A stretch of DNA of 64,000 nt from a phage, in the sequence record PZ445524.1; one strand, given 5' to 3'. The translations under genes and the position numbers were made by a program. Position 1 is the first letter of the stretch. Every line of letters starts with the position of its first letter. Below the pieces are notes generated by a model that worked only from the letters and a program-made list of their open reading frames with translations, searched no databases and was not told the DNA's origin. This document shows, piece by piece, positions 37,943 to 39,658 of the stretch.

Positions 37943-38128
37943 CTATTCACCTTTAGAAATTTTATCCATAACAATAGCGATTAAACCAATTAAAAATGCT
38001 ACTACAAGTGAAAACACATTTTCTGATGTAGTTAATAATCCGCATATAAATCCAACAAACATTGAAAAACTAAAAGCGGAAGCAGAAATTGCAATAGCAA
38101 CATTTCGAATTAATTCACAACGTTTCAT
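37943..38128 (-). CDS. small membrane protein
   Basis: 61 aa from ATG 38126-38128 (MKRCELIRNVAIAISASAFSFSMFVGFICGLL...); the longer ORF would run through its own promoter. Confidence 0.5.
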   Translation of the reverse strand: MKRCELIRNVAIAISASAFSFSMFVGFICGLLTTSENVFSLVVAFLIGLIAIVMDKISKGE

Positions 38129-38153
38129 TTTATTCTCCTCAGTAGTTGATAGG

Positions 38154-38186
38154 GTAATAATATCACTATTAAAACCCAATGTAAAC
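38154..38186 (-). promoter_or_regulatory. T4-type early promoter cassette
   Basis: minus GTTTAC ... ATATTATTACCCTATCAACTACT. Confidence 0.5.
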
Positions 38187-38189
38187 AAT

Positions 38190-38414
38190 TTATTCAACAC
38201 CAGCGGCTTTCAAAAGTTTTTTAAGATTGGCAACACCTTGAGCAGAAAATGTGACCTTGCCACCTTTTTCACTGATAGAACCAACCAATTTAGCAAGTTT
38301 ATCATTAGGAATTTTTTTAAAATCAGCCAATGTTCCATCAAAGGTTTTTGAAACAAAAGGCAGTTCGTCTTCATGTCTTTTAGCTTCTGCAATAAATTCT
38401 TGATATGTTTTCAT
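38190..38414 (-). CDS. internal-protein-like small protein with capsid targeting sequence
   Basis: 74 aa from ATG 38412-38414; N-terminus MKTYQEFIAEA. Confidence 0.65.
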   Translation of the reverse strand: MKTYQEFIAEAKRHEDELPFVSKTFDGTLADFKKIPNDKLAKLVGSISEKGGKVTFSAQGVANLKKLLKAAGVE

Positions 38415-38446
38415 TTTAGTTTCCATTTGGATGTTTTGTTTTGATA

Positions 38447-38481
38447 GGGTAATAATATCACCACCCTATCTAAAAGTAAAC
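38447..38481 (-). promoter_or_regulatory. T4-type early promoter cassette
   Basis: minus GTTTAC ... GATATTATTACCC. Confidence 0.5.
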
Positions 38482-38491
38482 AGTTTATAAA

Positions 38492-38800
38492 CTATTTTAT
38501 TCCGCGTGATGCAATTGTGTTCTGTCGTTTAACACCAGTTTGTTTAAAGTCATGATTGTCGATTTGATCGGTACGAGCAACTCCGAATGATGATTTGATT
38601 TTAGCTTTAGATCCTTTAGTTATAGAAATAAACATCTCGGAAGCCCCTTTCTTAAAGTCCGAGGCGATTACTTCAACGCCGTTCTTAGCAAGTGACTTCA
38701 GAATTGCCTCTGCATACTCATCGTCAAGACTCGTCTGAGTATTAATAACGAATGTCTTTGGCGCAGCCGCTTCATTGATAAATTCTTTAAATGTTTTCAT
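38492..38800 (-). CDS. internal-protein-like protein with capsid targeting sequence
   Basis: 102 aa; N-terminus MKTFKEFINEA. Confidence 0.6.
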   Translation of the reverse strand: MKTFKEFINEAAAPKTFVINTQTSLDDEYAEAILKSLAKNGVEVIASDFKKGASEMFISITKGSKAKIKSSFGVARTDQIDNHDFKQTGVKRQNTIASRGIK

Positions 38801-38825
38801 TTTATTTTCCTAATTAATTTTGATA

Positions 38826-38860
38826 GGGTAATAGTATCACTACTAAAACCACATGTAAAC
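38826..38860 (-). promoter_or_regulatory. T4-type early promoter cassette (direct repeat copy 1)
   Basis: near-identical to the cassette at 39156-39190. Confidence 0.55.
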
Positions 38861-38872
38861 AACTTTGTGAAA

Positions 38873-39130
38873 TTATTTTAAATCTTCTAATCGTTTCTTC
38901 ATCTTAGAACCGTTCTTAGCGATTTCGCCTGCATCAGAGCATAATGCTAAAAGCGCTTTAACTTTAGTTTGGTCTCCTTTAAAAGATGAAGGATCCACAG
39001 CAGCAGCAAGTTCTTTAATACGAGAGAAAAGACGCTCAGCTTCAGCTAAAGCCATTCCAAGCTTTACTTCCATACCGTGGGAAGATTCAGTGATAGTAGT
39101 TTTTGTAGCAAACTCTTTGAAAGTTTTCAT
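38873..39130 (-). CDS. internal-protein-like protein with capsid-targeting-like N-terminus
   Basis: 85 aa; N-terminus MKTFKEFATK; flanked by about 100 bp direct repeats. Confidence 0.55.
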   Translation of the reverse strand: MKTFKEFATKTTITESSHGMEVKLGMALAEAERLFSRIKELAAAVDPSSFKGDQTKVKALLALCSDAGEIAKNGSKMKKRLEDLK

Positions 39131-39155
39131 TTTATTTTCCTAATTAATTTTGATG

Positions 39156-39190
39156 AGGTAATAGTATCACTACCTCATCAGTATGTAAAC
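39156..39190 (-). promoter_or_regulatory. T4-type early promoter cassette (direct repeat copy 2)
   Basis: minus GTTTAC ... GATACTATTACC. Confidence 0.55.
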
Positions 39191-39202
39191 AACTTTGTGA
39201 AA

Positions 39203-39658
39203 TTATTTTAAATCGTCTGCCCAATCGAGTTTAAGAGGCTCTTTGTATTCACGGTCAAGTACAACCGGAATTTGTACATCACCGCTAAATGATAAGGGCC
39301 CAACATTATAAGACAATGTTATATGCGGTGTGTAATCATCAAAATCATGTGTAGCACCTAGTGCCCGCGCATACATGTGTCGACAGCGCAGATATTCAGA
39401 ATCTAGCACAAGTACAAGAGTCGATCCATCTTGTGTTTTCCATACTTCTAAATGTCCAGAAGAAGCTACTTCAAAACTTCCACTCGATGGAACATATGGA
39501 ACATTTACTCTTGAATAACATATAGTCGAATGAATTTTTTCTCTAGGAACTGGATTAGGAACACGTAAAGAGCGCTGGAGTTCTTCCAGCGCATCAAGTG
39601 TTAATTCTGAAAACTTAGCTGCTACATAAAGACCCGTTGAAAAGTCTTTAAATTCCAT
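39203..39658 (-). CDS. 57B: gp57B, 2H phosphoesterase (Acb1 anti-CBASS cyclic-nucleotide nuclease)
   Basis: 151 aa; two HxT/S motifs (HSTI and HITL) typical of 2H phosphoesterases; position upstream of 57A. Confidence 0.75.

Follow-up and report, generated by a model that had tools for sequence, protein, structure and literature searches.

The IPI locus of the window

A 64,000-nucleotide stretch of phage DNA (sequence record PZ445524.1; hereafter the window) carries three small adjacent genes whose products begin with the capsid targeting sequence found in phage T4 internal head proteins (IPs). A sequence-only reading of this DNA had placed three open reading frames (ORFs) at 38190-38414, 38492-38800 and 38873-39130, and all three are present there on the minus strand, which also carries every other gene in this part of the window. 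In the order of transcription, they are:

38873..39130, minus strand: ip5, 85 residues; matches phrog_3499 and RB15 Ip5
38492..38800, minus strand: ip7, 102 residues; matches phrog_2667 and RB15 Ip7
38190..38414, minus strand: ip8, 74 residues; matches phrog_8765 and RB15 Ip8

It is near certain that this array is the 'IPI locus' of a T2- or RB15-like Tequatrovirus, holding, in this order, the named internal head protein genes ip5, ip7 and ip8. Ip5 is identical to its RB15 counterpart at 85 of 85 residues (100%), Ip7 at 101 of 102 (99%) and Ip8 at 72 of 74 (97%), with both Ip8 differences falling within the targeting peptide. The PHROG families agree: Ip5 matches phrog_3499, 'internal head protein' (expectation value, E, 1.2e-49), Ip7 matches phrog_2667 (E 5e-41) and Ip8 matches phrog_8765, 'internal virion protein' (E 2e-26). 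Annotations of related phages give ip5, ip9, ip7, ip8 in RB15, ip5 and ip7 after 57B in T2, and Ip5, Ip9, Ip7 in RB32. The named families Ip5, Ip7 and Ip8 are said to originate with Repoila in 1994.

The array region matches hundreds of T4-like phage genomes. The nearest of these, in a collection of 50,697 phage records that does not include the window's own phage, are ∼95-97% identical over 22 kb. A contiguous ip5-ip7-ip8 array occurs in 0 of the 50,697 records, the best single place covering 80% of the query. Taken singly, the proteins are widespread: the mature part of Ip5 is found in 495 records (226 of them holding a paralogue at ∼54% identity, and 232 holding Ip5 at ≥99% identity), that of Ip7 in 284 (from Escherichia, Klebsiella, Enterobacter and other phages) and that of Ip8 in 108, half of which are Klebsiella phages. 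What is new in the window is only the ip5-ip7-ip8 permutation of known cassettes, and it introduces no new principle. Earlier publications already contain the genes and their repeated regulatory units, the shuffling model, the hypothesis of an anti-defence role and the connection with Acb1.

In phage G8 (NC_054915.1, 63604-63792), the ∼54% Ip5 paralogue is separated from the IPI locus by ∼8 kb, and members of the Ip5 family thus seem to occupy more than one genomic position.

The array is bounded, and preceded, by the following genes:

39203..39658, minus strand: gene 57B, encoding Acb1, a 151-residue cyclic-nucleotide phosphodiesterase active against CBASS, an antiphage signalling system based on cyclic oligonucleotides; Pfam PF23474; upstream neighbour of the array
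37943..38128, minus strand: trna.4, encoding a 61-residue predicted membrane protein; phrog_1692, E 7e-35; annotated as trna.4 in T2, RB32 and T4
40664..39900, minus strand: gene 1, deoxynucleoside monophosphate kinase
39900..39658, minus strand: 57A, between gene 1 and 57B

Transcription runs from gene 1 through 57A, 57B, ip5, ip7, ip8 and trna.4 to two conserved ORFs and a tRNA cluster. The order from gene 1 to segB is that of T4, and ip5-ip7-ip8 occupy the T4 ipI slot between 57B and trna.4, the latter marking the downstream boundary, a conserved one, of the IPI locus. The adjacency to 57B/Acb1 that had been proposed from the letters alone is borne out by a full-length match of 57B to the Pfam PF23474 Acb1 profile (E 2.6e-60; 202.7 bits, the cut-off being 27; residues 8-149 aligned with profile positions 1-144 of 144). 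DNA identity to T4 across 57B (window 39096-39700) is 97.5%.

Capsid targeting sequences and predicted protease sites

The N-termini of the three proteins are MKTFKEFATKTTITE (Ip5), MKTFKEFINEA (Ip7) and MKTYQEFIAEA (Ip8). All begin MKT[YF][KQ]EF, so that position 4 is Y or F and position 7 is F. A six-frame translation of the whole window contains the pattern MK[TS][YF][KQ].F five times, where 0.014 occurrences would be expected from composition (200 shuffles gave a mean of 0.01 and a maximum of 1). All five matches are starts of minus-strand ORFs, and they are confined to the two classical IP loci, three in the array and two beside the lysozyme gene e. The earlier claim that the three ORFs open with the T4 internal-protein targeting sequence therefore holds.

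In T4, targeting depends on residues 4 and 7 and processing on residues 8 and 10; internal-protein propeptides are 10-19 residues long, and the first 10 residues of IPIII are enough to package foreign proteins (PMC9026906). Residues 4, 7, 8 and 10 are all kept in Ip7 and Ip8. By motif, the (L/I)-X-E sites for the gp21 protease are INE at 8-10 in Ip7 (INE|A) and IAE at 8-10 in Ip8 (IAE|A). Ip5 has ATK at 8-10, without an (L/I)-X-E site there; its sole site is ITE at 13-15 (ITE|S), in the same TITE context as the T4 IPI site, where ITE stands at 17-19. Because this is the only site, and as the IPI propeptide is likewise long, the targeting peptide of Ip5 is probably 15 residues rather than 10. 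Predicted cleavage after E15 would leave a mature Ip5 of 70 residues (isoelectric point, pI, 9.2). Cleavage of Ip7 after E10 (MKTFKEFINE) would leave 92 residues (pI 9.65), and cleavage of Ip8 after E10 (MKTYQEFIAE) would leave 64 (pI 9.6). At 6.8-9.9 kDa and pI 9.2-9.65, the predicted mature proteins resemble IPI*, IPII* and IPIII*.

The mechanical ORF for ip8 opens at an upstream ATG at 38426, and comparison of the leaders puts the true start at 38414. The in-frame ATG four codons 5′ of the start (METK-MKTYQ..., 38415-38426, minus strand) sits within the ribosome-binding site. Mechanical ORF callers would add four residues to ip8 and so mask its N-terminal targeting sequence.

Promoters, leaders and hairpins

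The regions upstream of the genes hold four copies of a 46-nucleotide (nt) direct repeat, 74-89% identical to the reference copy, and two of a 109-nt repeat (88%). Alignment of the four sites gives GTTTAC(A/T)-N17-TGaTA(C/T)TAT, and all four fit the PST/T4 early promoter consensus TTTACW-N17-TAYWAT of Comeau et al. 2014 (PMC4122927). In the ip leaders, the promoter is followed by an AGGAAA ribosome-binding site and the ATG. The promoters and their stem-loops are:

39161..39190, minus strand: ip5 early promoter, GTTTACA-17 nt-TGaTACTAT (aligned promoter site)
39151..39180, minus strand: ip5 hairpin, 13 bp, resembling the promoter-early stem-loops (PeSLs) of T4-type phages and overlapping the -10 element (RNA fold)
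38831..38860, minus strand: ip7 early promoter, of the type that precedes ip9 in RB15 and RB32; stem-loop degenerate (z -0.6)
38452..38481, minus strand: ip8 early promoter, GTTTACT-17 nt-TGaTATTAT (aligned promoter site)
38443..38470, minus strand: ip8 hairpin, 12 bp, overlapping the -10 element (RNA fold)
38157..38186, minus strand: fourth copy of the early promoter, driving trna.4 (repeat and alignment)

The 29-nt core of the ip5 promoter, from TTTACA to TACTAT, is identical to that of T4 ipI and RB15 ip5. A stable hairpin is kept at two of the four copies. The ip5 hairpin folds at -17.4 kcal/mol (z -3.4; 0 of 200 shuffles as stable) and the ip8 intergenic region at -21.2 kcal/mol (z -4.4; 1 of 200 shuffles as stable), and the hairpins at the ip7 and trna.4 promoters have decayed (z about -0.5). 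In a terminator scan, the promoter hairpins were found to precede an A-run, not a T-run, and none was called an intrinsic terminator. The repeats are thus real, as the sequence-only reading had it when it described a near-identical early promoter and leader before each ip gene. They are not specific to ip genes, because the fourth copy drives trna.4, whose product is a membrane protein and not one of the internal proteins.

The Shine-Dalgarno sequence of trna.4 is GGAG, a RegB-type cleavage motif, and that of the three ip leaders is AGGAAA. In T4, many early messages carry GGAG as the signal for cleavage by RegB. Judging from their leaders, the ip messages, which lack GGAG, may have a longer translational life.

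Cassette differences among related phages

The IPI loci of RB15 and T2 share with the window the interval from 57B to trna.4, the promoters, the leaders and the targeting sequences, in addition to the near-identical RB15 proteins. Homology to T2 covers 37939-38193 and 38441-39700, leaving the ip8 cassette (38193-38441), which T2 lacks, as the sole difference; this cassette is flanked by promoter-repeat copies at 38146-38191 and 38441-38486. Homology to RB15 covers 38103-38844 and 38765-39211, two blocks that overlap by 80 nt. The overlap takes in the -10 region, the leader and codons 1-12 of ip7, and it is there, between ip5 and ip7, that RB15 carries ip9. RB15 also differs in the Ip8 peptide, which reads MKTYQKFIVE against MKTYQEFIAE in the window. 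Homology to T4 extends from 57B through the promoter and leader, ends after codon 11 of ip5/ipI and resumes at the trna.4 promoter.

Compared with T2 and RB15, the window therefore differs by whole cassettes, with end points that fall within the repeats formed by promoter, leader and targeting sequence. The promoter variant also tracks position rather than payload, as ip7 in the window and in T2 has the promoter that RB15 and RB32 carry before ip9. Together, the end points and the position-tied promoters form the pattern expected from homologous recombination between promoter/leader/targeting-sequence units.

Such a pattern has precedents. Comeau et al. 2014 recall a 1994 hypothesis of host-range shuffling (PMC4122927), and Arbiol et al. 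2010 described more than 30 IP variants and regarded the elements of T-even IP loci as analogues of PeSLs on T4 early promoters. As in the PeSL cassettes of T4-type phages, an early promoter, accompanied by a stable stem-loop at two of the four copies, is repeated at the borders of variable small genes, and the end points of insertions and deletions lie in the repeats. In contrast to the PeSLs of RB49 and phi1, the stems of T-even IP loci are AT-rich, weaker and free of polyG/polyC, making them analogues rather than homologues (Arbiol et al. 2010). The window further departs from PeSLs in that only two of four copies have a stable hairpin and in that its repeat reaches into the coding targeting sequence.

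In more distant T4-like contigs of IMG/VR (loci L007-L011, ∼3001-3500), only 1-5 nt separate ip8 from the ip9 that follows it, both lacking a promoter of their own, so the layout of one promoter per ip gene seems restricted to close relatives of T4. Further ORFs with targeting sequences and without a match to named Ips occur in L008, L009, L011, L012, L013 and L015.

Mature proteins and predicted folds

Beyond the targeting peptide, Ip5, Ip7 and Ip8 are unrelated to one another and to T4 IPI, IPII and IPIII (blastp E > 1), and a profile-profile comparison of Ip7 with Ip8 aligns only the 13 targeting-sequence columns. The proposal that the three are otherwise unrelated to each other or to ipII/ipIII is thereby upheld. 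This non-homology leaves function undecided, because the three T4 inhibitors are themselves mutually non-homologous.

Among 5.8 billion proteins, the only homologues are from close T4-like phage relatives (≥66% identity), and the alignments available for structure prediction are shallow as a result. When Ip7 was used for an exhaustive profile search of 1.84 billion representatives, four matches came back, including one fragment and one spurious tandem-repeat protein; the yield was Ip7's own family, a diverged member of 99 residues and the spurious repeat protein, with no cellular relatives. A phmmer search of Ip5, Ip7 and Ip8 against all PDB sequences (E up to 10) gave nothing significant, and IPI* was not among the listed matches. 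The best PDB matches, of Ip7 to a designed DARPin (E 0.023) and of Ip8 to PNO1 (E 0.073), were set aside as insignificant. The Pfam families DUF4479, Mur_ligase_M and DUF7890, which came up for the three proteins, were discarded as sub-threshold noise.

The AlphaFold model of Ip7 (predicted local distance difference test score, pLDDT, 74) has a beta-alpha-beta-beta-alpha-beta core at residues 1-70 (pLDDT ∼70-88) and a disordered basic C-terminal tail. This tail, FKQTGVKRQNTIASRGIK (∼18 residues; 84-102, or 74-92 of the mature protein; window 38492-38551, minus strand), is almost invariant across the family, which makes it a candidate interaction peptide or nucleic-acid-binding tail. Ip8 is modelled as a compact beta-alpha-beta-beta-alpha domain (pLDDT 82). 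A Foldseek search of the Ip7 model against viral structure models returned the Ip7 family only, with no link to other internal or anti-defence proteins. Structure prediction and profile searches had been suggested as checks on the three proteins; they were run, with folds obtained for Ip7 and Ip8 only, and the outcome was generic folds and no functional lead.

Proposed mechanism and function

Taken as a whole, the locus is very probably explained as the named ip5-ip7-ip8 IPI locus, with packaging of the T4 type and nuclease blocking by analogy with the T4 internal proteins. Each ip gene would be transcribed early from its own T4-type promoter, with precursors made from early times. As in T4 biology, the precursors would bind the gp22 scaffolding core via the targeting peptide. 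The gp21 protease would then trim them, after E10 in Ip7 and Ip8 and after E15 in Ip5. By the same analogy, the mature proteins would stay in the DNA-filled head at hundreds of copies (T4 heads hold ∼360 copies of each internal protein; PMC9026906) and would be injected together with the phage DNA. On entry, each could bind and block one host nuclease that attacks DNA containing glucosylated hydroxymethylcytosine, as T4 Ip1, Ip2 and Ip3 do, the most likely target being a variant of the GmrSD-type type IV restriction enzymes. The parts of this proposal differ in strength. By analogy, it is near certain that Ip5, Ip7 and Ip8 are packaged as the T4 internal proteins are. An anti-defence function is, on the same grounds, somewhat to be favoured, and GmrSD as the specific target is a tentative suggestion that falls a little short of even chances.

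Ip1, Ip2 and Ip3 each block a distinct GmrSD type IV enzyme without cross-protection, and GmrSD variants have been proposed as the targets of every protein encoded at the two Ip loci (Silas et al. 2025, PMC12373910). Rao & Black 2010 described T-even internal proteins as diverse defence proteins with only the targeting sequence in common (PMC3012670), and the identification of 57B as Acb1 is due to Hobbs et al. 2022, who presented its adjacency to ipI as an anti-defence island (PMC9117128). The suggestion that the three proteins are candidate injected anti-defence effectors thus gains support from the analogy with Ip1-Ip3 and from membership in an IP locus, and the idea is already in the literature.

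The closest parallel is T4 IPI (Ip1), the injected inhibitor of GmrS/GmrD of E. coli CT596. The array shares with it the slot directly downstream of 57B/Acb1 and the promoter core. Ip5 in particular is homologous to it at the DNA level through the first 11 codons (MKTFKEF..., 97.5% to window 39096) and resembles it in having a long propeptide ending in TITE and a small basic mature protein. Unlike these parts, the mature sequence of IPI* is unrelated to that of Ip5 (blastp E > 1). T4 Ip2 and Ip3, which inhibit the GmrSD of ECOR21 and ECOR17 (PMC12373910), have the targeting peptide MKTYQEFIAE that is found unchanged in Ip8. Their route of packaging and injection, and the concept of one inhibitor per enzyme variant, are applied to the window proteins by analogy. 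In contrast to the three window genes, ip2 and ip3 belong to the other IP locus, which lies between e and denV, and their mature parts share no similarity with those of Ip5, Ip7 and Ip8; they also differ from ip4-10, which have shown no reproducible anti-GmrSD activity.

Several points weigh against this interpretation. Virion proteomics for Ip5, Ip7 and Ip8 was not found in the searchable literature. When ip4-10 were assayed against active members of 15 GmrSD groups, no reproducible inhibition was seen (PMC12373910, section 10, Suppl. Fig. 9), and apparent effects of ip7 on CLS_011 and of ip8 on CLS_018-019 failed triplicate plaque assays (PMC12373910). The published modification-dependent restriction assays on ip5, ip7 and ip8, as part of ip4-10, have accordingly given no positive result so far (PMC12373910). 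T2 and T6 are restricted by the GmrSD of ECOR17 and ECOR21 (PMC12373910); T2 carries ip5 and ip7 and is restricted nonetheless, from which we infer that those two enzymes are not targets of Ip5 or Ip7. The predicted folds of Ip7 and Ip8 are generic and offer no lead on function. Finally, a search for the late promoter TATAAATA found none within the array, the nearest upstream copy lying inside gene 1 at 40256-40263, so the supply of protein at head assembly would have to come from early synthesis or read-through.

Alternative explanations

These same results can be turned into an alternative, in which Ip5, Ip7 and Ip8 are injected effectors with targets other than GmrSD, be it a different defence system, another type IV nuclease or, directly, the nucleic acids of the host. 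The failure of ip4-10 to inhibit the assayed GmrSD variants reproducibly and the restriction of T2 by two such variants both favour it, and the neighbouring Acb1 already acts on a quite different system, CBASS. However, GmrSD enzymes are the targets in each of the three cases where the target of a T4 internal protein is known (PMC12373910), and the diversity of this family is far larger than the 15 groups sampled. We consider this alternative unlikely, though deserving of attention. A narrower version draws on the predicted folds: Ip7, with an RNA-recognition-motif- or ACT-like ferredoxin fold and an almost invariant basic tail, and Ip8, with elements in the KH-like order beta-alpha-alpha-beta-beta-alpha, might not be GmrSD inhibitors at all but injected nucleic-acid- or ligand-binding proteins, directed at another class of defence or shielding the end of the incoming DNA. 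Such a role would explain the null screens on 15 GmrSD groups; it is a doubtful proposition.

Less probable still is a mainly structural role, in which the Ips would serve as basic counter-ions or as aids to DNA packing or core assembly, and their diversity would reflect weak constraint rather than an arms race. Ip5, Ip7 and Ip8 are indeed all small and basic and have no known target, and the T4 Ips, at ∼360 copies per head, bind DNA at low salt, with IPIII mutants being slower in head assembly (PMC9026906). Yet the T4 internal proteins are dispensable on laboratory hosts (PMC9026906), and Ip1, Ip2 and Ip3 each have a specific enzyme target (PMC12373910). The pattern of variation also fits poorly: conservation within families is high (≥99% identity for Ip5 in 232 phage records, and the almost invariant Ip7 tail), which argues for a specific function and against weak constraint, and what varies is the gain and loss of whole genes, as in anti-defence islands.

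It is very improbable that the targeting-like N-termini are recombination relics on one or more proteins, especially Ip5, that go unpackaged or unprocessed: Ip5 does have ATK in place of I-X-E at 8-10, promoter, leader and first codons do travel as a unit whatever the payload, and the same promoter drives the non-internal protein trna.4, but Ip5 retains the F4 and F7 needed for targeting (PMC9026906), its ITE at 13-15 stands in the T-I-T-E context of the proven T4 IPI cleavage site (17-19), and the first 10 residues alone suffice for packaging foreign proteins (PMC9026906).

Significance

Host immunity encounters the injected internal proteins before any other phage molecule, and all three of those in T4 disarm variants belonging to a single family of restriction enzymes. 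Knowing what the many other Ip families, which recur across phage records (Ip5 in 495, Ip7 in 284 and Ip8 in 108), are directed at would chart much of the arms race in which T-even phages and enterobacteria are engaged. It would also help to predict the host range of therapeutic Tequatrovirus phages. The question of what Ip5, Ip7 and Ip8 target is already being pursued by others and was not first raised by the window sequence.

The second IP locus and the tRNA cluster

The two remaining matches to the targeting motif lie in the second IP locus (30113..31025, minus strand), which adjoins the lysozyme gene e and contains:

30708-31025, minus strand: 105-residue protein with a targeting sequence (MKTYQEFIAESAAGQRVEGGY...); phrog_3966, 'unknown function', E 2.7e-34
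30113-30691, minus strand: IPIII; phrog_5341, E 4e-117

The 105-residue protein is encoded directly upstream of IPIII. This locus is without T4 ipII. Downstream of IPIII, where T4 has ipII and denV, stands a 195-residue ORF with a P-loop-like GKS motif (29396-29983, phrog_1488).

Beyond trna.4 and the two conserved ORFs, the tRNA cluster (35794-37144) comprises eight tRNA genes, and a GIY-YIG endonuclease gene lies among them. The latter, a 221-residue ORF at 35874-36539 (minus strand), occupies the T4 segB position and lies, as in T4, between tRNA-Arg and the other seven tRNAs. A tRNA with the anticodon CAT (36581-36652) is found at the position that T4 annotates as tRNA-Ile.

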